Shown piece after piece: positions 546 through 58,617 of a stretch of DNA of 64,000 nucleotides. Under the pieces are notes generated by a model, which ran no database searches, had not been told where the DNA came from, and worked only from the letters and a program-made list of their open reading frames with translations. A program made the translations under genes and the position numbers. This DNA is from Parcubacteria group bacterium GW2011_GWA1_40_21. Lineage in GTDB: Bacteria; Patescibacteriota; Minisyncoccia; Phycocordibacterales; GWA1-40-21. Location: NCBI GenBank assembly GCA_000996205.1, contig LBYO01000005.1:1728-65727 (forward strand), in the 5' to 3' direction. Within the stretch, counting starts at the first letter, position 1, and each line of letters begins with the position of its first letter.

Positions 546-713
546 ATGAAGACAAACAAAGGCAAGTTTCAAATCTCAAAAGCAGAACATTTCGGGTGCG
601 CTCCGCGCCTCAAAGGTGTCGTCAAAAATCTGGGCATAAAACCGACGAGAAAGATGAAGAGAAAAGGCGAGGTTCATATGAGAGTTTCGGATATCAAGAA
701 GAAGTTAAAATAA
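546..713 (+). CDS. small basic hypothetical protein
   Basis: ORF 477..713, likely start MKTNKGKF; lysine/arginine rich; no recognisable family. Confidence 0.25.
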   Translation: MKTNKGKFQISKAEHFGCAPRLKGVVKNLGIKPTRKMKRKGEVHMRVSDIKKKLK

Positions 714-716
714 TTT

Positions 717-888
717 ATGAACATAAGAATAATTTTAACTTTGATGGGTCTCGCGACAGGCTGGTTTTTGTTTGAAGAAATAATTATAGGCGCCGTTGCG
801 TTCATTATATTCGGCGTTATCGTCTGGTTTGGTTACAAAAGAAAAAAGAGGAATTCAAAAGCGAAATTAAAAAGCCCAATCGGCTAAT
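717..888 (+). CDS. small hydrophobic membrane protein (57 aa)
   Basis: own translation MNIRIILTLMGLATGWFLFEEIIIGAVAFIIFGVIVWFGYKRKKRNSKAKLKSPIG; two predicted TM segments; not in ORF track (below 60 aa). Confidence 0.3.
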
Positions 889-1002
889 TATCTCATTTGG
901 TTTTTACCCACCCCTTAAGCATTGACTATATTAAATATTTCCATTACTTTTATTTCAGACTTTGTAAAAATATAAATAAAATCTTTAGAAAGGAGAAAGA
1001 GA

Positions 1003-1548
1003 TTGGCTAAAATAACTATTTTTGGACTCGCGGGGACAGGCACGACTTCGGTTGGGAAAATGTTGGCAAGCAATTTAGGTCACACTTTTTTGTCTAGCGG
1101 GAATTTGTTTAGAGAAAAATCGGTTAAACTTGGAATTGAAGTTTCCAAGCTTGAAAAAATCTGCTTAACACATTCAAAATATGATCTTGAGCTGGACAAA
1201 TATATAGAAAAGTTTGGCAAAGAAAAAAATAACTTTGTCGTGGAAAGCCGTCTAGCTTATCACTTCATTCCAGATTCAATAAAGATAAAGTTTGTCTGCG
1301 ATTATGCCACCAGGATTCAGAGAGTGGCCAGAAGGCAGAATATACCCACTTCGGTCGTTTCTGAAGAAACAAATTTCAGGGAGCAGGCCGCGAAGAGAAG
1401 ATACCGTAAACTTTACGGCGTCAAAAAATTGGCGCCAGATAAGCAGTTTCATTTAATCATTGACACATCGCGCAGATCCGCGGAAGAAACCGCGGCAATT
1501 ATTGTCTCAAAATTTAACCTGTTTAAACTCAAAGGAGGCAGACAGTGA
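1003..1548 (+). CDS. cmk: archaeal-type cytidylate (CMP) kinase, P-loop
   Basis: TTG start with upstream GGAG; Walker A GLAGTGTTSVGK; overall collinear with archaeal CMP kinases (FRE..., ESRLA, KRRY..Y motifs). Confidence 0.7.
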   Translation: MAKITIFGLAGTGTTSVGKMLASNLGHTFLSSGNLFREKSVKLGIEVSKLEKICLTHSKYDLELDKYIEKFGKEKNNFVVESRLAYHFIPDSIKIKFVCDYATRIQRVARRQNIPTSVVSEETNFREQAAKRRYRKLYGVKKLAPDKQFHLIIDTSRRSAEETAAIIVSKFNLFKLKGGRQ

Positions 1549-1940: not shown

Positions 1941-2063
1941 CCTCTCAATGAACGGGTATCATTATATGCTTTGTATTACGAAACTTGATAATGCCGTTGA
2001 CTTAATTATATAATGTGATATACATAAGAAACAAATTGATTATTATTTATTAATCGCACAAAA

Positions 2064-6279: not shown

Positions 6280-6385
6280 CTTTGAATTACGAAACCCTTG
6301 TTTTCCGTCTTTGCGAGTCGGTACTCCGGCGTGGCAATCCAGAGCTTATCGCGCGTAATCATAGATTGCCACGCTTCTCATAATT
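6280..6385. repeat. MITE family A copy (truncated; left 'ctttgaattacgaaac' end only)
   Basis: about 100 bp nearly identical to the left halves of the copies at 32919 and 48045. Confidence 0.7.
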
Positions 6386-6428: not shown

Positions 6429-7607
6429 ATGAAAAAGATTGGGACAAACAACACAATGAATAAGTTAAAGAAAAAAGCTAAAGTCTTCGTGGCGATGTCG
6501 GGCGGGGTGGATAGCTCGCTTTCGGCGGCTTTGCTTAAAGAAGAAGGCTACGATGTGACTGGAGTATTCATAAAGGTTTGGCAGCCGGATTTTGTGGAAT
6601 GCGTTTGGAAGGAAGATAGGCTGGATGCGATGAGGGTGTGCGCGAAGTTGGGGATTAAATTCTTGACTCTTGATTTGGAGAAGGAATACAAAAGGGATGT
6701 GGTGGATTATATGGTAAGCGAATACAGGGAAGGACGGACGCCGAATCCGGATGTGAATTGCAACAAGTATGTGAAGTTTGGAGCCTTTTTTGATTTTGCG
6801 ATGAAAAACGGAGCAGACTATGTCGCGACGGGACACTATGCCCGCCTTCGGCGGGAATTTCCAATTTCTAAATCCCAATTTCCAAACAAATCAGAAATTC
6901 TAAATTCAAAAATACAAACTATTTATAAATTGCTCGAAGCAAGCGATTCAAACAAAGACCAGTCGTATTTTCTGTGGAATTTGACGCAGGAACATTTGAA
7001 GAGAACTCTCTTTCCCATCGGAGATATGCAAAAAACGGAGGTCAGGAAAATGGCGCGAAAATTCAACCTGCCTGTTTCAGAAAAAAAGGACAGCCAAGGA
7101 CTTTGCTTTATCGGCAAGGTGGATATGAAAGATTTTTTAAAACATTATCTGCCACCAAAGAAAGGAAATGTTTTGAATGAAAAAGGGGAAGTAATCGGCT
7201 GGCACGAAGGAGCCTATTTCTACACGATTGGCCAAAGGCATGGATTTATAATCACGAAAAAGTCGCCGGAGGATAAGCCTTATTACATAATTTCAAAAGA
7301 CATACCGTCAAACACAATCACGGTTTCTCACAGTCCTGCCACGCAAGGAATTTCATCGTCAAAAAAAATCACGATAAGCGGATCAAATTGGATAGCCGGC
7401 GAGCTTCCTGATTTAAATAAAAAATATAAAGCCAGAATTCGCTATCGCGAGCCACTTAAATCTTGCCGAATTGAAATGGTGAAAGAAGGTAATTCAAGAT
7501 TTTTGATTATCTTTGACTCTTCTCAAGCCGCCGTTTCCAGAGGACAATCGCTAGTCATTTACGACGGCGAGCATTGTATTGGCGGAGGGGTTATAGACAA
7601 TTTTTAG
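6429..7607 (+). CDS. mnmA: tRNA-specific 2-thiouridylase MnmA
   Basis: PP-loop AMSGGVDSS, VATGHYAR, LCFIGK motifs; low-complexity insert after the catalytic core. Confidence 0.9.
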   Translation: MKKIGTNNTMNKLKKKAKVFVAMSGGVDSSLSAALLKEEGYDVTGVFIKVWQPDFVECVWKEDRLDAMRVCAKLGIKFLTLDLEKEYKRDVVDYMVSEYREGRTPNPDVNCNKYVKFGAFFDFAMKNGADYVATGHYARLRREFPISKSQFPNKSEILNSKIQTIYKLLEASDSNKDQSYFLWNLTQEHLKRTLFPIGDMQKTEVRKMARKFNLPVSEKKDSQGLCFIGKVDMKDFLKHYLPPKKGNVLNEKGEVIGWHEGAYFYTIGQRHGFIITKKSPEDKPYYIISKDIPSNTITVSHSPATQGISSSKKITISGSNWIAGELPDLNKKYKARIRYREPLKSCRIEMVKEGNSRFLIIFDSSQAAVSRGQSLVIYDGEHCIGGGVIDNF

Positions 7608-12470: not shown

Positions 12471-12533
12471 TCCCTCCTCAGTTTTAATCTTAGAAATTTC
12501 TATTTTCCAAAACTGGGGAGGGATATTCGTGCT
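12471..12533. repeat. hairpin element family C ('tccctcctcagtttta...aaaactggggaggga')
   Basis: about 60-bp near-perfect inverted repeat; homologous copies at 21546 (inside rnpB) and 48147 (nested in a MITE). Confidence 0.7.
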
Positions 12534-21481: not shown

Positions 21482-21918
21482 CGTCTTTGCGCCGGATAGC
21501 CACTGAGTTCCGACTTGCTCGGAGCTTAGAGGAAAGTCCGAACACTCTCCCTCCCCAGTTTTAGGCTCTCGAAATTTCTATAGTCTAAAACTGGGGAGGG
21601 AAACAGGGTAGCGGGTAACGCCCGTCTGGAGCAATCCAAGAGGTGCGAACAGAGACGCCAAACATCGAAAGATGTTTGGGCGCTTCCGAAAGGAGGCGTA
21701 GTCCAGCTCCAGTTTTGAGAGATTGATTTTTCGATAATTCAAAACTGGGGCTGGGGTGCAACGGCAAAATCCTTACCCGGGTGCAAGGCCGTGTCTCCCG
21801 ATGTAATGTCGGGGGAAGTGCCGCTTGAGTCCAGCGGTAACGCTGGACCTAGATAAATGGCTATACAATTTCGCACAATGCGGAGTAGACAGAATTCGGC
21901 TTATAGGCGCAAAGGCAT
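21482..21918 (+). ncRNA. rnpB: RNase P RNA (bacterial type)
   Basis: conserved GAGGAAAGUCCG (P4 5' strand), GGGUAACGCC, ACAGAAuuCGGCUUA (P4 3' strand); 5' ctttgcgcc pairs with 3' ggcgcaaag (P1). Confidence 0.8.
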
Positions 21919-21920
21919 TA

Positions 21921-24668: not shown

Positions 24669-24886
24669 CCGTGAATTATGAAACTTGTCGAGGCGCGCTG
24701 TTTTCGGGAGGTTTTGAGTCCGGTGCCAGTTTTGATCTATGGAAAATTGCACAAACAAAACTGGTGCTGGACGAAAACTTCAGGATTTTTTAAGCTTCAA
24801 AAAATATGGACATTAAAAACAGCGCGCCGAGTAAGAGTTTCGTGATTTACAAATAGATAATCAGATAATCAATTTTTCTCGCGAAG

Positions 24887-26566
24887 ATGGTAAAAACTGT
24901 ATTAAAAATTTTTCACAGGGAGATAAGCGGACTTCATGAGGCCGCTTATCTTTTGGCGTTTTTCGCGATTATGTCCCAGATTTTGGGATTAATCAGGGAC
25001 AGGCTTCTCGCGTACTCTTTCGGCGCGAGTAGTACCCTTGATATTTATTACGCGGCATTTCGGATACCTGATTTTATATTTGTCACCGTGGCTTCCATCG
25101 TTTCAATTTCCGTTCTCGTTCCATTCCTCATTGAAAAATTGGATCAAGGCGCAGTTCTCGGCAAGAAATTCATTGATAACATATTTTCTTTCTTTTTCAT
25201 TTTGATATTCGGGGTCAGTCTTTTGGCTTATTTTTTAATGCCATATCTTGTCCCGCTTATTTTTTCCGGTCTAAACGAAACGGATAAGATGTCGGAGCTT
25301 ATAACAATCGCTCGCATTTTGCTTTTGTCGCCAGTATTTTTGGGACTTTCAAATTTCTTCGCGAGCATCACTCAAGTCTATCGCCGATTTTTAATATACG
25401 GTTTAAGCCCGCTTTTTTATAATATTGGAATTATAATCGGAATTTTGTTTTTTTATCCGATATTCGGCCTGAAAGGCCTTGTTTTCGGAGTGATTCTGGG
25501 AGCCATTTTTCATTTTTCCATACAGATACCTTTTGTCCGGAAGCAAGGTCTTATTCCCAGATTTTCATTTTCTATTGATTACGCTGAAATAAGAAGAGTC
25601 GTATTTTTATCTGTCCCAAGAACGATTACTCTCGGCATACACCAAATAGGACTGATTTTTTTGATTTCTATCGCTTCCAGAATGACCGAAGGATCAATTT
25701 CCGTGTTTAATTTTTCTTTGAATTTACAGTCCGTGCCCCTTTCAATAATAGGGGTCAGTTATTCAATCGCGGCTTTTCCCACTTTATCGCGGCTTTTTTC
25801 GTCAGGACAAAGAGATAATTTCTTGCGGCAGATTATTGTTTCATCAAGACATATTATATTTTGGTCAATTCCCGTGAGCGTTTTGTTTATAGTCCTCCGC
25901 GCTCAAATAGTGAGAACTATTTTAGGTGCGGGCAAATTCAGCTGGGAAGATACCAGACTCACGGCCGCCGCGCTCGCTCTGTTTACCATATCAATAGTCG
26001 CTCAAAGTATGGTGCTCTTGTTTGTAAGAGGTTATTACGCGATGGGCAATACGAAAAAACCTCTCTTTACGGGCTTGTTTTCCGGCGCGATGATAATTTT
26101 ATTTTCCTTTATTCTCATCGCAATATTCAACAATTTTCCAATGTTCCGATATTTTATTGAGTCTCTGCTTAGGGTGGACGATATTTCAGGAACGGCGGTC
26201 TTGATGCTCCCGCTCGGATACTCCCTCGCTCTTGTCGCCAATTGCGTTCTTCTTGGAATTTATTTTCACAGAGATTTTCCCGATTTTTTCAAAGCAATCG
26301 CCAAGACATTATTCCAGAGTTTCAGCGCCTCAATCATTATGGGCTTTGCCGCTTATTTAAGCCTTAATATTTTTGATAACATCTTTAATCTCAATACGCT
26401 CATCGGCATATTTTCTCAAGGTTTGTTTTCCGGATTAGTCGGCATATTCGCGCTTATCTTGACTCTAAAACTTTTGAAGAGCAGAGAAGCGGATGAAATA
26501 TGGAAAACTATGCATAAGAAAATTTGGAAAGCCAAGCCTATCTCTCCGGATGTGCAGGAGTTGTGA
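24887..26566 (+). CDS. murJ: lipid II flippase MurJ (MviN)
   Basis: LLAYSFGASSTLDIYYAAFRIPDF N-terminal signature; 14-TM architecture. Confidence 0.85.
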   Translation: MVKTVLKIFHREISGLHEAAYLLAFFAIMSQILGLIRDRLLAYSFGASSTLDIYYAAFRIPDFIFVTVASIVSISVLVPFLIEKLDQGAVLGKKFIDNIFSFFFILIFGVSLLAYFLMPYLVPLIFSGLNETDKMSELITIARILLLSPVFLGLSNFFASITQVYRRFLIYGLSPLFYNIGIIIGILFFYPIFGLKGLVFGVILGAIFHFSIQIPFVRKQGLIPRFSFSIDYAEIRRVVFLSVPRTITLGIHQIGLIFLISIASRMTEGSISVFNFSLNLQSVPLSIIGVSYSIAAFPTLSRLFSSGQRDNFLRQIIVSSRHIIFWSIPVSVLFIVLRAQIVRTILGAGKFSWEDTRLTAAALALFTISIVAQSMVLLFVRGYYAMGNTKKPLFTGLFSGAMIILFSFILIAIFNNFPMFRYFIESLLRVDDISGTAVLMLPLGYSLALVANCVLLGIYFHRDFPDFFKAIAKTLFQSFSASIIMGFAAYLSLNIFDNIFNLNTLIGIFSQGLFSGLVGIFALILTLKLLKSREADEIWKTMHKKIWKAKPISPDVQEL

Positions 26567-26583
26567 TGATTGTAAATTGATAC

Positions 26584-26688
26584 CTTGAATTACGAAATGC
26601 AAAAATTTAGGTCTGGTTGAGCAAAAACATTTAGAAGACAAAGAGGTTTTGCGACCCGAGGACCTAAATTTTTGCATTTCGTAATTCA
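26584..26688. repeat. MITE family B copy ('ttgaattacgaaatgcaaaaattt' TIR)
   Basis: about 24-bp terminal inverted repeats; second copy at 27494. Confidence 0.75.
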
Positions 26689-26804
26689 CAGATTGATAAT
26701 AAAAAAATGGGTCAAGCATAGACACTTGACCCATTTTGCCGCAAAATCCTTTGTAGAAAAAAGGGTATCTGCTCACGACTCTTTTATGCCCCTTGTGTTT
26801 TTTA

Positions 26805-26902
26805 TGTCATTCCCATGAAAGCTTGTCCTCGCCGCGATCGGGGATGGGAATCCAGATTCAATCAATGAGGACCTAGATTCCCGTCTTTACGGGAATGACA
26901 GA
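26805..26902. repeat. 'gtcattccc...gggaatccag...gggaatgaca' repeat element (copy C)
   Basis: atgtcattccc ... ggggatgggaatccag ... cgggaatgacagat. Confidence 0.6.
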
Positions 26903-27059
26903 TGGAGGCGTGAATAGATACTGTACAAGTACTTGCTTTTATTTGAATACGGAGTATAATATTTAAATCGGGAGATGTTCTCAAGGGTTTAAGTTTTTCT
27001 TAGCCATATGGGAAGGGGTCGCTCTATCGATGATTTATAAGAATAAATTAAGTTAGCAT

Positions 27060-27392
27060 ATGGCAAAGAAATTGTATGTCGGAAATTTGTCTTACGGAAT
27101 GACTGATGACGGCTTGAAAGACGCTTTCTCGAAAGTGGGAGCGGTTGATTCAGCCAACATCATTACGGACAAAATGACCGGCAGATCCAGAGGTTTTGGT
27201 TTCGTCTCTATGCCGAACGATGATGAAGCGCTTAAAGCGATTGATTCAATGAACGGTTTGGATCTTGACGGACGAAAGCTTACTGTAAACGAAGCGAAGC
27301 CTATGGCAGAGAGACCTCCAAGAAGGGGAGGCTTTGACAGGGGTGGTAGCGACAGAGGTGGTAATAGAGGCGGAGACAGAATGGGCTACTAA
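27060..27392 (+). CDS. RRM-type RNA-binding protein with Gly/Arg-rich tail
   Basis: RNP2 LYVGNL and RNP1 RGFGFV motifs; C-terminal RGG repeats. Confidence 0.88.
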   Translation: MAKKLYVGNLSYGMTDDGLKDAFSKVGAVDSANIITDKMTGRSRGFGFVSMPNDDEALKAIDSMNGLDLDGRKLTVNEAKPMAERPPRRGGFDRGGSDRGGNRGGDRMGY

Positions 27393-27420
27393 AAATAGTT
27401 TGTTCTCATAATCGCCTCAA

Positions 27421-27456
27421 ACAAAAACCCGACCTAACGGTCGGGTTTTTGTTTGG
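27421..27456 (+). terminator. rho-independent terminator
   Basis: aaaacccgacc taac ggtcgggtttt followed by tgtttgg. Confidence 0.75.
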
Positions 27457-27493
27457 CTGATTGATAATAATTGTATTTTCAGAGTATAATGAA

Positions 27494-27604
27494 CCCCGAA
27501 TTACGAAATGCAAAAATTCAGGTCCTCGGGTTATAAAAGCTATTTGTTTTTTTAAATGTTTTTGCTCAATAGACCTATAAATTTTTGCATTTCGTAATTC
27601 GGGG
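27494..27604. repeat. MITE family B copy 2
   Basis: ccccgaattacgaaatgcaaaaatt...aatttttgcatttcgtaattcgggg. Confidence 0.75.
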
Positions 27605-27655
27605 TAATAAAGTTATAAGTTTTTAATTTTTTTATACAATTTACGCAACATCACA

Positions 27656-29458
27656 ATGCTTTCATCTGAAGAAATACGAACGAGATTTTTAAAATTTTTT
27701 GAAAAAAAGGGGCATAAGATAATCCCTTCGGCATCGCTTGTGCCGGAAAATGATCCTTCTGTTTTGTTTACAACGGCCGGAATGCATCCTCTTGTGCCGT
27801 ATATTCTCGGGCAGACTCATCCATTGGGGAAGATGCTCGCCAATTCGCAGAAATCTTTGAGGACGGTGGATATTGACGAAGTTGGCGACAATACCCACGC
27901 GACTTTTTTTGAAATGCTTGGAAACTGGTCTTTGGGCGACTATTTCAAAGAAGATGCTATCAAATGGAGTTATGAATTTTTAACTTCCAAGGAAGAAGGA
28001 CTCGGTCTCAATCCTTCGCGTTTGTATGTGACGGTTTTTGAAGGAGATGAGAAGGCGTCAAGGGACGATGAGTCTTTCAAAATTTGGAAAAGTCTGGGAA
28101 TGCCAGAGGATAAAATATATTTTATGAGCGCGAAATCCAACTGGTGGAGCGCCGGCGACAGCGGACCATCAGGTCCGGACACGGAAATGTTTTATGATAT
28201 AACGGATAAAGGTCTCAATATCAAGACAAAAGAAGAATTTTTTAAGGCCGACGAAAAACAGCAGGTGGTGGAGATTTGGAATGATGTCTTTATGGAATAT
28301 GAAATGAAAGATGGCAAAGTGATAGGCAAATTGAAAAATAAAAATGTTGATACTGGGTCTGGTCTTGAAAGAGTGGCTATGGTGGTTCAGAAAAAAAACA
28401 ATATATTTGAGACGGATTTACTAGCGCCTTTAATTGAAAAAGTTGAAGATTTAAGCAATGTTGATTCGGCTAAATTATCTGACAAAGAGGCTTTGAGAGC
28501 GAAGAGAATTGTTGCTGATCACATCAGAGCTTCAGTTTTTATAATTGCCGATGGGGTAATGCCGTCAAACACCGACCGAGGTTATGTTTTAAGAAGGCTT
28601 TTAAGAAGAGCGGTAAGATATTCCGACATTTTGAAAATAAAAGAAGGAGGGATCAATGATATTGCCAATGCTGTTATTCAAAAATATGAAAAAATTTACA
28701 GAAATGTTGCTGATAATTCTAGTGTGATTATTAAGGAGATTGAAAAAGAGGAAAAAAAATTTCGCGGGAGTCTGGCGCGTGGATTAAAGGTTTTTGAAAA
28801 TTATGTAAGCGCGGATTTTCAACTATCTGGACAATCTGCTTTTGAATTGGTTACAACATACGGCTTTCCGCGCGAGCTCATAGAAGAAATCGCCAAAGAA
28901 CGAAAAATTGAGGTGGACTGGTTCGCGTTTGAAGCTGAAATGAAGAAACATTATGATCTTTCGCGCGCAGGTTCGGAGCAAAAATTCAAAGGAGGTTTGG
29001 CCGACATGGGCGAGGAGTCAATCAAATATCACACTGCGACGCATCTTTTGCATGCGGCTTTGCGCGATGTTTTGGGCGATCATGTCTTGCAAAAGGGAAG
29101 CAACATAACAGCCGAACGGCTTCGTTTTGACTTCTCGCACGACGGCAAAATGTCCGAGGAAGAAAAAAAGAAAGTTGAAGATATCGTGAATCAAAAAATA
29201 AAAGAATCGCTCCCGATAAGTTTCAAAGAGATGAATATAGGCGAAGCTAAGACAGCCGGAGCGCTCGGCGTCTTTGGCGAGAAATACGGCGAAGTGGTGA
29301 AAGTATATAAAATCGGAGATGAAGAGCGGGGAATTTTCAGTATGGAGCTTTGCGGCGGACCTCATACCGAAAATACCGGCAAGCTGGGACACTTCAAAAT
29401 AATCAAAGAAGAAGCGGTCTCGGCCGGCGTAAGAAGAATCAAGGCGGTCTTGGAGTAA
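27656..29458 (+). CDS. alaS: alanyl-tRNA synthetase, short form (catalytic + editing domains; no C-Ala domain)
   Basis: N-terminal FLKFFEKKGH..PSASLVP..DPSVLFTTAGM; editing HTATHLLHAAL ... CGGPH. Confidence 0.85.
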   Translation: MLSSEEIRTRFLKFFEKKGHKIIPSASLVPENDPSVLFTTAGMHPLVPYILGQTHPLGKMLANSQKSLRTVDIDEVGDNTHATFFEMLGNWSLGDYFKEDAIKWSYEFLTSKEEGLGLNPSRLYVTVFEGDEKASRDDESFKIWKSLGMPEDKIYFMSAKSNWWSAGDSGPSGPDTEMFYDITDKGLNIKTKEEFFKADEKQQVVEIWNDVFMEYEMKDGKVIGKLKNKNVDTGSGLERVAMVVQKKNNIFETDLLAPLIEKVEDLSNVDSAKLSDKEALRAKRIVADHIRASVFIIADGVMPSNTDRGYVLRRLLRRAVRYSDILKIKEGGINDIANAVIQKYEKIYRNVADNSSVIIKEIEKEEKKFRGSLARGLKVFENYVSADFQLSGQSAFELVTTYGFPRELIEEIAKERKIEVDWFAFEAEMKKHYDLSRAGSEQKFKGGLADMGEESIKYHTATHLLHAALRDVLGDHVLQKGSNITAERLRFDFSHDGKMSEEEKKKVEDIVNQKIKESLPISFKEMNIGEAKTAGALGVFGEKYGEVVKVYKIGDEERGIFSMELCGGPHTENTGKLGHFKIIKEEAVSAGVRRIKAVLE

Positions 29459-29586
29459 TTTTCAAAATTAAGCTTTCCAATGAGTTCCCTTGGATTACTC
29501 TCTCTAAAATTTACAAAAAAATGCTACCAGAGATCCGAAGATCTTCTGGTAGCATATTAAATATAAATGAGAGATGTCTATTTAAT

Positions 29587-29988
29587 TTAAACGCAACACT
29601 TGTCGTTTTCTCTGCAAAGATATTTTGCCAAAACAAAACCGGGTTTTTCTTTCCATTGAGGCCATAACACCTCAATTTTTCCAAATTTTATATTAAAGTT
29701 TTGCGGTCTCGATCTAAATAATGCAATCAAGAATGCAATCAACGCATCCTTTTTTATGAGAGTTTCTATATCGGGATACTTATTGTATCTTGTCGCGATG
29801 TGAAGTTTATCACCGGAAGATTCCAGATAATAAAAACAATTACCCATCATATACGCTTCGCCCTGCAGGTAAACATTTTTATGAGCCGTAGCGGTATTTT
29901 CAAGTGTTTCTTTTAGTCGGTCCATATCTACGCCTCGATCTTTTAAAATAAGTGAAAAAATACTCACATTAAGAGTGTTAAGTTTCAA
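29587..29988 (-). CDS. hypothetical protein
   Basis: ORF only. Confidence 0.3.
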   Translation of the reverse strand: MKLNTLNVSIFSLILKDRGVDMDRLKETLENTATAHKNVYLQGEAYMMGNCFYYLESSGDKLHIATRYNKYPDIETLIKKDALIAFLIALFRSRPQNFNIKFGKIEVLWPQWKEKPGFVLAKYLCRENDKCCV

Positions 29989-30310
29989 TGCCTTTCTCCT
30001 TAAAATTAAAAAATTAAAAGTGAAAAATCTTAATCCTACCGGTATGATAAATGCGCTTATGGATTAATAACCACCTCCTTTTTGAAAGAACTATTTCCTT
30101 AATATTAAAGAAAGTATTATATTAATCCTCGTAAAAATTTTGTCAAATTCTGCTATAAGGTTTTAGTTTATAGTTGTTAGTTTATGGTCTTAATAAAAGA
30201 AATTTTCAATTTCTAATTCGCAATCTTCATTAAACCTATAAACTAGCACCTAACCACAATAACCTTCTTATAATTGTTGAGTTGACTGTCCTTGTGTTAT
30301 AATTTCATAT

Positions 30311-31507
30311 ATGTCGCTATTTTCATTTTTCAATAAGAAAAGCGAAGAAGTTTCCGCTGTCTTTCACATAGGGAGCGGGAGCGTGGATGCGCATCTCGTC
30401 AGATTTTCTAAAGTATCAAAACCGGAAATAATTTACGCGACAAAAGCCCCCATATCATTTCAGAAGAATATTGATTTGGAAAGATATTTCAAGCTTATGG
30501 TCAAAGCGTTTGATTCCGCACTTCAGGACATTCAGAAGCGCGGGCTGCTCCATTTGAATTTCACCGGTTTGAGAAATCACAGGATAAGCAATGCTTTCTA
30601 TGTATTATGTTCGCCGTGGTGCGTATCGCAGACTAAAATAATAAAAATAAAAAAAGATAAGCCTTTTGAAATAACCGTCGATTTGATTGAAGGCGTAATA
30701 AATGAACAAGAGAGGAAGTTTTTATCGGATGATTCGGTTAAAGGCTCAAAGATAATTGAAAAGAAAATAATTGACGCGAAATTAAACGGCTATAGAACGG
30801 CGGAAATCTTCGGCAAAAAAGCTAAAGATGCTGAGCTTGCTTTTTTTATGACTTCAGCACCGGAATATGTGCTGAAAGAATTGAATTATGTTGCGCGCAA
30901 GTATTTCAATTTTCACATCTCGGATTTCCATTCATTCGCTATCTCTGCTTTTTCTGCAATCCGGGAAATATATTCCGACAAAGAAAATTTCATATTTATT
31001 GATACTCACGGGGAATTAACGGACTTGTCAATAATAAAAGACAATATTTTCGCGGAGAGCGTTTCTTTTCCGGTGGGGGAAAATTTTTTTGTGCGGCAGA
31101 CGTCTAAAGACCTCCTCCTTTCAGGCGATGAATCCTGCTCTCTCATAAATTTGCATATTAACGGCAAATGCGACAGCGTGACCTCGCAAAAAGTTCAAGC
31201 GACTATGGATAAATCGCTTAAAATTTGGTTGGAAAAATTCCATTCTGTTTTGACTTCTCTTTCACTCAATATGTATGTTCCAAGAACAATTTTTATTATG
31301 ACAGATAATGAGTTTAGCGAATTTCTGGCTAAAAAATTAAAAGAAGAAAAGTTCAGCCAGTTTTCAATGACAGAAGAATCTTTTAATGTTATAGTATTAA
31401 ATAATAAAAGCCTCTGCGAATACTGCCTGTCAGACAAGGAGATTGAGAAAGAACCATTCGCGGAACTGGAATGTGTATTCTTGAACAAGATATTTAACAC
31501 AAAATAA
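30311..31507 (+). CDS. actin-like ATPase fold protein (PilM/FtsA-like)
   Basis: N-terminal phosphate-1-like VFHIGSGSVDAHLV and later IDTHGELTDLSII resemble PilM/FtsA ATPase motifs. Confidence 0.4.
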   Translation: MSLFSFFNKKSEEVSAVFHIGSGSVDAHLVRFSKVSKPEIIYATKAPISFQKNIDLERYFKLMVKAFDSALQDIQKRGLLHLNFTGLRNHRISNAFYVLCSPWCVSQTKIIKIKKDKPFEITVDLIEGVINEQERKFLSDDSVKGSKIIEKKIIDAKLNGYRTAEIFGKKAKDAELAFFMTSAPEYVLKELNYVARKYFNFHISDFHSFAISAFSAIREIYSDKENFIFIDTHGELTDLSIIKDNIFAESVSFPVGENFFVRQTSKDLLLSGDESCSLINLHINGKCDSVTSQKVQATMDKSLKIWLEKFHSVLTSLSLNMYVPRTIFIMTDNEFSEFLAKKLKEEKFSQFSMTEESFNVIVLNNKSLCEYCLSDKEIEKEPFAELECVFLNKIFNTK

Positions 31508-31508
31508 A

Positions 31509-32852
31509 ATGGCAAAAAACATCATACAAGACGTAGTGGTAAACAACAGAAGATCCATTAGGCAAGTATCCATTGAAAGAAGAAGGCGTCCGACGCAGAG
31601 CAAGGCGAGGAAAATGGAAGCGAATGAGTTTGAAGAAAAAAAGAAAGCGGAGCCGGCGAGTCAGGAAACGCAGAAGGAAATAAAAAAAAGAAATGCTCCA
31701 AAGATGATAATTTGGACAATAGCATTGTTATCCATAATTTTTTTGCTGTTTTCAGTAACATCTTTCTTTTCAACGGCGACAGTGACCGTAATTCCCAAGA
31801 CTGCCCGCATTGCGTTCAACGACACTTACATAGCCAAAAAGAATGCTCTTCCCGGCGAACTCCGATACGAGGTGATGACTCTGCAGAAAAAAATGTCAAA
31901 ACAGCTTGAAGCGACGGAAACGGAAAATCTTAAGATTAAGGCGAGCGGGAAAATCGTGGTATACAATAATTTCAGCGAGGCGACTCAAAGGCTTATCATA
32001 AACACCAGATTTGAATCCGAAGAAGGTCTGATTTATAAAATACCCAAATCAATCATTGTGCCCGGCATCAAGCTGGTTGGAGGCAAGAAGGTTCCGGGAA
32101 GCGTTGAAACACTCATCTTCGCGGATGAGCCCGGTGAAAAATACAATATGAAAGTTTCAGATCTCAAGGGAGATTTTAAAATCGCGGGTTTCAGGGGCGG
32201 CAAAAAATACAACTTTTTCTACGCGCGACTCAAGACTGACATAGCGGGAGGTTCAAGCGGTTTGGTTAAAAAAGTGCCGGCGAAAATATTGGACGAAGCC
32301 AGAAAAGAATTAAGGGCCGATATCAAATCCGAACTTCTTAAAGAAGCTTATGCCATCAAACCCCAATCTTCCGTCCTTCTTGCTGACGCTTATTATTATT
32401 CAGATTACGCTTCTTTGCCTGACAAGTTTCTGGGCGCTGATAAAATTGAAATCAATGAAAATGCCGCTTTCCACGGAATAATTTTTGACGAAGCCGAATT
32501 AAACTCTTATGTGGTAAAAAATAAACTTCCTGATTATGACGGCGTGCCTGTCAATTTGGTTTTAGATGACAATACCGGCGTCAGCTTGTCCGACAATTCC
32601 AGCGCGAAACCCCCTTGGGAAGGCGATTCGTTGAGTCTTTCTTTGAAAGGCGGAGCGGATGTCATTTGGACTTATGACGAGGCTCTCTTGCAGAAAAGTC
32701 TCGCCGGTCAGCGAAAGAGCGATTTAAATCGCATCATATCGTCTTTTCTCGGAATCGCGGAAGTGCGCGCTCAAGTAAGGCCTTATTGGAAAAGATCTTT
32801 TCCAAGCAAGCCGGAAAAAATAAAAATTGAAAATTTCAGCGTCAAAAAATAA
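31509..32852 (+). CDS. membrane-anchored hypothetical protein (possible partner of upstream PilM-like gene)
   Basis: basic N-terminus, single TM (IIWTIALLSIIFLLFSV), large extracytoplasmic domain; start overlaps the upstream stop. Confidence 0.4.
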   Translation: MAKNIIQDVVVNNRRSIRQVSIERRRRPTQSKARKMEANEFEEKKKAEPASQETQKEIKKRNAPKMIIWTIALLSIIFLLFSVTSFFSTATVTVIPKTARIAFNDTYIAKKNALPGELRYEVMTLQKKMSKQLEATETENLKIKASGKIVVYNNFSEATQRLIINTRFESEEGLIYKIPKSIIVPGIKLVGGKKVPGSVETLIFADEPGEKYNMKVSDLKGDFKIAGFRGGKKYNFFYARLKTDIAGGSSGLVKKVPAKILDEARKELRADIKSELLKEAYAIKPQSSVLLADAYYYSDYASLPDKFLGADKIEINENAAFHGIIFDEAELNSYVVKNKLPDYDGVPVNLVLDDNTGVSLSDNSSAKPPWEGDSLSLSLKGGADVIWTYDEALLQKSLAGQRKSDLNRIISSFLGIAEVRAQVRPYWKRSFPSKPEKIKIENFSVKK

Positions 32853-32918
32853 TTTTATCACCGCGACTTTTCGTTCCGTTCTTTATTTCTGTCTCTGCTT
32901 TATAAACTTTATGAACTT

Positions 32919-33061
32919 CTTTGAATTACGAAACCCTCATTTTCCGTCTTTGCGAGCCGGTACTCCGGCGTGGCAATCCAGAGTTTACCGCGCGTAATAA
33001 TGGATTGCTTCGCTTCGCTCGCAAAGACAATGCGGTAATGTGATAGTTTCGTAATTCAAAG
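32919..33061. repeat. MITE family A, complete copy (~143 bp)
   Basis: TIRs ctttgaattacgaaac / gtttcgtaattcaaag; internal ttgcgagc...gctcgcaaag inverted repeat. Confidence 0.8.
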
Positions 33062-33140
33062 TGAACTTGATAACTTTCAACTTATTTGCTTGACTAATCA
33101 TATGGCAATTTGCTAACATAGTGTTTGCTGTTTTAAAGTA

Positions 33141-33365
33141 ATGGAAAATAAAAAAGCAAAGGAAAAAGTGGCCACGGGCGGGATAGTGGTAGAGGCTTTT
33201 CCCAATACCTTGTTTAAAGTGAAGCTTGATGGCGGCGGAAGCGAGATACTTGCTTATCTTTCGGGAAAGATGAGGATGAACAGGATAAGGGTTTTAATAG
33301 GAGACAAAGTCGTAGTTGAACTTGATGAATATGGTGGTAAGGGAAGAATCGTTAAAAGAAACTAG
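33141..33365 (+). CDS. infA: translation initiation factor IF-1
   Basis: S1-like OB fold: GIVVEAFPNTLFKVKLDGG...ISGKMRMNRIRVLIGDKV. Confidence 0.9.
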   Translation: MENKKAKEKVATGGIVVEAFPNTLFKVKLDGGGSEILAYLSGKMRMNRIRVLIGDKVVVELDEYGGKGRIVKRN

Positions 33366-47994: not shown

Positions 47995-48038
47995 ATGCCG
48001 CACCAATTGAATTGAATATTGGTGCGGCATTTCTTATT
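47995..48038 (+). terminator. rho-independent terminator
   Basis: 13-bp perfect stem atgccgcaccaat/attggtgcggcat, followed by ttcttatt. Confidence 0.7.
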
Positions 48039-48044
48039 CAGTCA

Positions 48045-48245
48045 CTTTGAATTACGAAACCTTCGTTTTCCGTCATTGCGAGCCGGTACTCCGGCGTGGC
48101 AATCCAGAGTTTACCGCGCGCAATAATGGATTGCTTCGCTCCGCTCGCCCCTCCCCAGTTTTAAGTTTTGGAAATATCCAGAATCTAAAACTGGGGAGGG
48201 GCTCGCAAAGACAATGCGGCAATATGATAGTTTCGTAATTCAAAG
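48045..48245. repeat. MITE family A copy carrying a nested family-C hairpin insertion (48147..48200)
   Basis: same TIRs and internal sequence as 32919..33061, but interrupted at ...ccgctcgc|cccctccccagtttt...aaaactggggaggg|gctcgcaaag with duplicated gctcgc. Confidence 0.8.
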
Positions 48246-48353
48246 TCAGTCATTAAAATTTGATAACTGATTGCATCATGTTTAATATTAAAAACAAAAG
48301 CCACCCTTTAAAGATGGCTTTATAGGCACGGTAATTTTCTTCTTTCAAGAAGA

Positions 48354-49063: not shown

Positions 49064-49293
49064 TTTTCTGCTGAAAATTTTATACTCCGCCCTTCGAATC
49101 CTGCCCGTCCCGATGTTCATCGGGACTCTGGGCGGACAATTCCGCTTCGCTGCATTGTCCGCCCAGCAGTAATTTCTCGCCTACAGCGCGTGATTTTCTT
49201 GTTTCGCCGACTCAACATAGAAAATCCTTCGAATCCTGACGAGAGCCAAGCAGTTGGCTCTCTCTGAGCGGACAATTCCGCTTCGCTGCATTG
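49064..49293. repeat. tRNA-Lys-associated modular repeat region (two tandem units)
   Basis: two copies of gcggacaattccgcttcgctgcattgtccgcccagcag (38 bp; includes the tRNA 3' acceptor strand), two ccttcgaatcctg T-arm-like fragments, and a ttttctgctgaaaa hairpin. Confidence 0.7.
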
Positions 49294-49366
49294 TCCGCCC
49301 AGCAGGATTCGAACCTGCGACCAATCGCTTAAGAGGCGACTGCTCTACCAACTGAGCTATAGGCGG
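49294..49366 (-). tRNA. tRNA-Lys (anticodon CTT)
   Basis: manual fold of the minus strand: acceptor ccgccta/tgggcgg, D-arm gctcagttggtagagc, anticodon loop ctCTTaa, T-arm gcaggttcgaatcctgc; no encoded CCA. Confidence 0.8.
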
Positions 49367-58471: not shown

Positions 58472-58617
58472 ATTTTACACTTTGAATTATGAAAAATTAT
58501 TCTGATTTCCTAAAAACCTACAACCTAACACCTACCACCCACAACCTGTTCGGCAGTTTGACAAGCCTTAAAAAGTCGGTATAATGCGAATATATTGAAT
58601 AATATTTAGAAAAATTT

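Follow-up and report, generated by a model that had tools for sequence, protein, structure and literature searches.

Correia elements of Neisseria, RUP of Streptococcus pneumoniae and Nezha of cyanobacteria are intergenic, multi-copy elements of 100-200 bp that are bounded by terminal inverted repeats (TIRs), form hairpins once transcribed and are sometimes nested in each other. Their terminal sequences, their target duplications (TA in the case of Correia) and their parental transposases are other than those of the elements described here. Within the IS982 family, a short non-autonomous derivative has been described in the Cardinium endosymbiont of Oedothorax gibbosus, where the MITE MITECca01 derives from the IS982-family member ISCca4 (PMC9769881). 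Full-length members of this family measure 845-1282 bp and encode 208-326 aa; their inverted repeats (IR) span 11-32 bp and their direct repeats (DR) 2-10 bp (Fayad, Kallassy Awad & Mahillon 2020, PMC7335449). Their ends follow the consensus 5'-AC(N)6T(N)5TT-3', with an AC start in 57 of 69 members, and the 70 ISfinder members covered in that review include none from CPR/Patescibacteria (PMC7335449). The literature that we searched contained no report of MITEs or of IS982 from CPR/Patescibacteria, a group whose genomes are very small and streamlined and whose mobile DNA is little described.

We analysed the repeats in a 64-kb stretch of DNA from a Parcubacteria group bacterium, the whole of which we call the window. 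The repeats are very probably MITEs that keep only the TIRs of an IS982-family IS of ~1.0 kb which is widespread in CPR/Patescibacteria. A preliminary description of the window had reported five copies in two families sharing a TIR, and each of the five lies where it had been placed. That account did not include a degenerate third family (C), two solo ends, the inversion of one family B copy (B2) or the palindrome nested in one family A copy (P52 inside A3). Altogether, ~8 footprints of one transposon superfamily occur within the 64 kb (Table 1).

Short inverted-repeat elements in the window

Family A is represented by two complete copies and one truncated copy. The TIRs of A2 are 16 bp long and perfect (CTTTGAATTACGAAAC), and the family ends CTTTGAATTACGAAAC/GTTTCGTAATTCAAAG are exact in both A2 and A3. 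This agrees with the earlier account of a unit of ~143 bp with these ends and an internal inverted repeat, which we found as TTGCGAGC...GCTCGCAAAG. The interior of A2 is occupied by a palindromic module, GTCTTTGCGAG...CTCGCAAAGAC, at 32946-33028. A3 is longer because of the nested palindrome P52, which belongs to a repeat family other than A and is missing from A1, from A2 and from a further family A copy on contig L134. GCTCGC is duplicated on the two sides of P52; given this duplication and the empty sites in the other A copies, P52 would itself be an inserting element.

Table 1. Coordinates of the elements in the window, and of three full-length IS found elsewhere.
Feature	Type	Location	Strand	Length	Details
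A1	family A	6280-6377	+	98 nt	left 98 nt only, right TIR absent
A2	family A	32919-33061	+	143 bp	complete
A2 TSD	target-site duplication	left 32912-32918, right 33062-33068	.	7 bp	TGAACTT
A3	family A	48045-48245	+	201 bp	complete, 143 bp + nested insert
A3 TSD	target-site duplication	left 48038-48044, right 48246-48252		7 bp	TCAGTCA
P52	nested palindrome within A3	48149-48200	.	52-56 nt	CCCTCCCCAGTTTTA...TAAAACTGGGGAGGG
B1	family B	26583-26691	+	109 bp	arms 28 nt, perfectly complementary; TSD ATTGATA (7 bp)
B2	family B	27494-27604	-	111 bp	arms 26 nt, perfect
C	family C, degenerate	24669-24852	.	184 bp	TIRs CCGTGAATTATGAAAC / GTTTCGTGATTTACAA
Solo end 1	TIR-like end	1969-1984	+		CTTTGTATTACGAAAC, 1 mismatch, no partner end nearby
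Solo end 2	TIR-like end	58480-58495	+		CTTTGAATTATGAAAA, 2 mismatches, no partner end nearby
L057	full-length IS	1-1107 (whole contig)		1107 bp	ORF 279 aa; flanking repeat n/a
L037	full-length IS	6598-7602		1005 bp	ORF 267 aa; flanking repeat TAACTA
L020	full-length IS	566-1546		981 bp	ORF 266 aa; flanking repeat TTGATA

The two family B copies stand in opposite orientations, and their lengths fall at or within a base pair of the 105-110 bp that had been estimated for this family. B1 starts 17 nt after the stop codon of murJ. Within-family identity had been put at more than 90%, which is true of A2/A3 (95%) and A1/A2 (91%) and overstated for A1/A3 (88.5%) and B1/B2 (87.5%). All copies had also been called intergenic, and every one does lie between ORFs.

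The degenerate family C element contains a nested palindrome of ~40 nt (CAGTTTTG...CAAAACTG, ~24727-24765). A homologue of this family lies in inverted orientation in L086 (2631-2783), where the nested palindrome is missing. Separately, we noted that this L086 element, a family C-type MITE in Patescibacteria isolate REEB66 (rpoA 87.5% identical), is flanked by the TSD TGATGA. As for the two solo ends, the one at 1969-1984 is probably a remnant, and the one at 58480-58495 may be either a remnant or a coincidental match.

We also considered whether the family A core (GTCWTTGCGAG...CTCGCAAWGAC) may be an independent nested element. In loci chosen by their TIRs, 15 of its 16 matches have an IS982-type end on one side or both; the lone match without TIR context, in L165, is likely a false positive. 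A hairpin-pair element, GTCATTCCCATGAAAGC...GGGGATGGGAATCCAGATTC...CTAGATTCCCGTCTTTACGGGAATGAC, is found at 26807-26903 between murJ and the gene of an RRM protein, and its layout (GTCATT-stem ... AATCCAG ... stem-AATGAC) is similar to that of the module at the core of family A (GTCTTTGCGAG...GCAATCCAG...CTCGCAAAGAC). On contig L134 (ENA ERZ27254726 k141_405462), positions 1195-1341 hold the left flank of A3 and a family A left half that has no nested palindrome, followed on the right side by a diverged family A right half and another flank that runs into a methyltransferase gene. L134 arose either by recombination between two family A copies or by chimeric assembly across the repeat; its junction implies at least one further family A copy beyond the window.

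Sequences resembling the element ends are more frequent in the window than expected. The 11-mer core GAATTACGAAA, with at most one mismatch, was observed 14 times against 4.5 expected, a count reached in 0 of 100 shuffles, and the 16-mer with at most three mismatches was observed 10 times against 1.9 expected. The elements contain no ORF and gave no tblastn match to transposase, and each forms one long hairpin (folding z = -8.8 to -11.2).

For the comparison of flanks, we set the element start 4 nt outside the core. A 7-bp target-site duplication (TSD) then flanks A2, A3 and B1 without mismatch, and at B2, the fourth complete copy in the window, it matches at 6 of 7 positions (TAATGAA/TAATAAA). 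The preliminary description had proposed looking for duplications of 2 bp or TA at the copy boundaries: duplications do exist there, but their length is 7 bp. Among short TIR pairs of 66-239 bp in other CPR loci (n = 52), 29 are directly abutted by perfect repeats of 5-8 bp in the same orientation, with a mode of 7 bp (7 bp, n = 16; 6 bp, n = 8; 8 bp, n = 4). The A+T content of perfect duplications is 88%; TAATTA is the consensus of the 6-mers, and the 7-mers tend to begin with T and end with A.

One insertion can be compared with an empty site. The gene upstream of A2 (447 aa) has a 92%-identical orthologue, P0121, on contigs L167 and L168 from the same aquifer, and downstream of this orthologue the two contigs read ...ATAAACTTTATGAACTTTATAACTTTCAACTTATTT, with a single TGAACTT. 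By explicit reconstruction of the window minus the element, we found that this site equals the window without the 143-bp element and without one TGAACTT, at 35 of 36 positions across the junction, for A2 only. A2 was therefore inserted after the split from the lineage with the 92%-identical flanking protein, which bears out the 'recent mobility' of the preliminary description for this copy; recency is otherwise only relative, with divergence among copies of 4-13%, one copy truncated and one degenerate. A 70%-identical orthologue (L164-L166) was also tried as an empty site and rejected: its spacer of 84 nt lacks the element and is too diverged for precision. In L164-L166 the upstream gene order differs, so that the comparison covered the spacer at A2 rather than the sites of B1, B2 and C. 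Among near-identical strains (P0243, P0244, 22+ contigs) there is no presence/absence polymorphism, all of them sharing the insertions of the window. Proteins identical to those of the window come from Parcubacteria group bacterium, Rifle aquifer, UT80/UT90 (e.g. GCA_000995985.1), and the same elements recur in JGI, ENA and NCBI assemblies.

Palindromic, intergenic sequences that often lie directly 3' of genes could also be REP/BIME-like or IS200/IS605-type palindromes moved by Y1 (HUH/RAYT), or terminator hairpins that are alike by chance. HUH elements, however, make no target duplication, whereas duplications of 6-8 bp are the rule here, and the cognate gene described below encodes a DDE transposase. 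Five terminator-like sites occur in 26400-33300, none of them within the elements, and chance likeness is excluded by the 87-96% identity over 100-143 nt and by the shuffles, which never reached the observed count. We give these explanations close to no credence. That the repeats are non-autonomous elements, as had been proposed, is upheld by the TSDs, by the empty site for A2 and by the ends they share with an IS.

Full-length IS982-type elements with the same ends

The preliminary description had placed an autonomous partner outside the window and had suggested a search for a transposase gene lying between copies of the same TIR. No IS982-type transposase is encoded in the 64-kb window, in line with that expectation, and such genes do occur in other CPR genomes, as well as in metagenomes of the same aquifer. 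In L057, L037 and L020, 16-mer ends identical to CTTTGAATTACGAAAC enclose a single ORF each, and L102 holds the right end alone of such an IS. The IS ORFs match Pfam PF13612 (DDE_Tnp_1_3; 99.9 and 102.6 bits, cutoff 27, E ~1e-28). NCBIfam NF033520 (IS982 family transposase) always ranked first among the models, with scores of 118.6-142.6 bits; its cutoff of 130 was passed by 6 of 10 proteins, and the NCBI name of one homologue is 'IS982 family transposase [Patescibacteria group bacterium]'. Residues D106, D183 and E230 (numbered as in L037) vary little or not at all among 14 sequences and are the putative catalytic residues. The Saccharibacteria contig L020 carries, at 641-1441, a G at the presumed catalytic E position (TRMIIGLNFRS vs TRxLIELNFRN); since glycine replaces a near-invariant glutamate, this copy of the IS may be inactive.

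A search for transposase homologues returned 1307 clusters, most of them on contigs of ~1 kb. As a guard against circularity, we assembled a TIR-blind set of 80 metagenome loci chosen by transposase similarity alone. Both end cores were in the expected places in 66 of the 80; another 12 had one end, with the other past the contig edge, and 2 lacked one. The IS measured 937-1107 bp (median 1002 bp), with consensus ends CTtTGAATTACGAAActcct (left) and CTTTGAATTACGAAActaA (right, reverse complement). At both ends, positions 4-15 carry ~2 bits, though the transposases are just 51-73% identical to the query. Full-length IS are present in samples that share the population of the window (L221 and L228 in JGI 3300025308, L238 in 3300025030), so that a full-length partner is known from the same samples, though not assigned to this genome.

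These observations fit a mechanism in which the DDE transposase of a full-length IS, elsewhere in the genome or in the community, would act in trans on the short elements. The transposase would bind the conserved end, with its core TGAATTACGAAA at element positions 4-15, and insert the element into A+T-rich targets (TAATTA-like, T...A) by a staggered cut, whose repair would give rise to the flanking duplication. We infer a stagger of 6-7 bp. Trans-mobilisation of MITEs by the IS transposase is likewise deduced from the ends that they have in common. Both arms of family B resemble the IS left end (26/30 match to L188), and this family therefore looks like a near-perfect foldback of one IS end. 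In family A, the 16-bp ends enclose an unrelated palindromic core, and these ends do not discriminate between the left and right ends of the IS.

Internal deletion offers another route from IS to short element, by which the copies would be wrecks of full-length IS left in situ rather than short elements that have transposed. Decay does happen, as the truncated A1, the degenerate family C and the solo ends show. Yet the same short interior is found at different sites (A2/A3, 95%), which means that the short form itself multiplied, and relatives of A and B occur in other genomes. Moreover, zero transposase-coding remnants were found in any copy, and the palindromic core of family A is unlike IS sequence. 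Wreckage in situ is thus an extremely unlikely origin for these copies, and we retain their interpretation as transposed MITEs.

An exact scan for the 16-mer CTTTGAATTACGAAAC, with one genome per species, gave at least 120 loci. Among the matches listed, 90 loci are in CPR-named MAGs, with hosts that include Saccharibacteria, Parcubacteria, Magasanik-, Uhr-, Doudna-, Nomura-, Campbell-, Wildermuth-, Ryan- and Falkowbacteria, and others. Among these same listed matches, 73 of the 90 CPR hits either have a partner end or are cut off by the end of the contig, and of the 17 hits in named non-CPR genomes 15 stand alone; on this count the end is all but confined to MAGs of CPR/Patescibacteria. As a control we used viral contigs, where all 27 of 27 16-mer hits were without a second end within 1.5 kb. 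The viral-contig hits, all single, behave as chance matches and give no evidence of a phage vector. Paired CPR-type ends were also seen in L012, L098, L104 and others, which are 'uncultured Gammaproteobacteria' binchicken MAGs, and the 'Bacteroidales' bin of L057 contains the whole IS as a high-coverage contig of 1107 bp. The labels or the binning of the L012, L098, L104 and L057 contigs may be wrong.

The short elements fall into ~six families, which cross genomes. Family A has relatives in Saccharibacteria, Paceibacterota and Minisyncoccia, and family B in Campbellbacteria, Parcubacteria GWA2_47_21 and isolate REEB66. The Campbellbacteria copy is 93.6% identical to that of the window (winB1), a similarity that suggests horizontal transfer. 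Elements of this kind could serve as a cheap marker of gene flow among CPR lineages. Their 16-nt end is present in dozens of CPR lineages among the matches listed, often exactly at contig ends. It is likely that the elements routinely break up CPR assemblies and give rise to chimeric contigs; L134 is probably one such contig.

Hairpins, neighbouring genes and nested palindromes

Two of the window copies lie beside promoter-like sites. A2 ends 22 nt upstream of a promoter-like site (TTGACT-18-TAACAT) that precedes infA-rpsM-rpsK-rpsD-rpoA. In REEB66 (L086), a different MITE of the same superfamily lies 11 nt upstream of the -35 of the same infA. The L086 element is an independent insertion almost at the place of A2, which suggests that this spot tolerates or favours insertions. 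Of the promoter-like sites in the region, the best is TTGATA-18-TATAAT at 27461-27490, and B2 lies directly after it, between this site and alaS; from this position, B2 would belong to the putative alaS leader.

We also examined the arms of family B, in which compensatory changes affect 6 pairs, all Watson-Crick, across eight copies in five genomes. Such changes, together with the high stability of the hairpins (z ~ -9 to -11), are what might be expected of a structured non-coding RNA family or of a selected cis-regulatory hairpin whose mobility is incidental or absent. Two further observations point the same way: the end variant of the L086 element, CTTTGAATCGCGAAAC, is altered on both arms, and B2, between a strong promoter-like site and alaS, could form part of a 5' leader. 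The preliminary description had itself named a longer structured RNA as the alternative to TIR-bounded insertions. Against this, the copies are bounded by TSDs, with a precise empty site for one, and occur in either orientation relative to neighbouring genes, in unrelated intergenic contexts. They matched no Rfam family at the gathering threshold, and at E <= 0.1 returned miRNA-like/scaRNA noise only. The arm changes are Watson-Crick swaps with hardly any G-U, which a DNA palindrome or matched transposase sites would fit equally, and a transposase gene is flanked by the same ends. An RNA or regulatory origin is therefore very unlikely in our view. The covariation of the family B arms does not contradict the MITE reading; it is not predicted by simple neutral decay of MITEs and is not fully explained.

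A broader reading would be that one IS982 clade with a near-invariant 12-nt end core circulates horizontally, together with its MITEs, across CPR, and that hosts have retained some of the copies as DNA or RNA structures. The candidates for retention would be the co-varying foldback of family B and the copies beside the infA and alaS promoters. We regard this reading as speculative and rather improbable.

Palindromes of the P52 type, 40-56 nt long with arms (CCCTCC)CCAGTTTTA...TAAAACTGG(GGAGGG), lie at 12471-12522, 21549-21600, 21703-21754, 48149-48200 and ~24727-24765. Two of these copies are nested in IS982-type MITEs, namely A3 and the family C element. Two others fall within a bacterial class A RNase P RNA gene at 21484-21919 (+; 99.4 bits, E 5.6e-31), which is absent from a standard Rfam scan because its 99.4 bits fall below the gathering score of 100. 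The palindrome at 21549-21600, with exact arms, is an insertion relative to the model after P5, and the one at 21703-21754 is a diverged P52 in a 70-nt insertion in the P13/P14 region. A mobile-looking palindrome within the gene of an essential ribozyme is noteworthy. The window also contains two hairpin repeats of 44 nt (CTCTGGGCGGACAATTCCGCTTCGCTGCATTGTCCGCCCAGCAG) at 49126-49169 and 49262-49305, which are 98% identical and lie 136 nt from each other; tRNA-Lys(ctt), on the minus strand at 49293-49366, is overlapped at its 3' end by the second repeat.

Comparison with known systems

The CPR elements share most of their features with the IS982 family. The IS of 937-1107 bp, whose single ORF encodes 266-279 aa and which have IR of at least 16 bp and DR of 6-7 bp, are like its members, as is their DDE-type transposase, with its PF13612 match and NF033520 as best model. 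They differ from the family in their ends, which follow the consensus CTtTGAATTACGAAAc, with tips CTTT..., and not 5'-AC(N)6T(N)5TT. The A that often precedes the C belongs to the duplicated target; TSDs such as TGAACTT, ATTGATA and ATAATTA are incompatible with an AC...GT tip. The CPR transposases have NF033520 scores that straddle the 130-bit cutoff.

IS982-derived MITEs are already known from Cardinium and are an ordinary kind of mobile DNA, and the known workings of MITEs are left unchanged by these findings. Like MITECca01, the window elements are short and non-coding, have TIRs that match an IS982-family IS and are presumed to be mobilised in trans. MITECca01, however, is a single lineage-specific family of ~240 bp in a Bacteroidota endosymbiont. 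The window by contrast holds at least 3 families of 98-240 bp, with ~six in the sampled loci; these families are common to different CPR lineages, and their host is a CPR bacterium of a free-living community.
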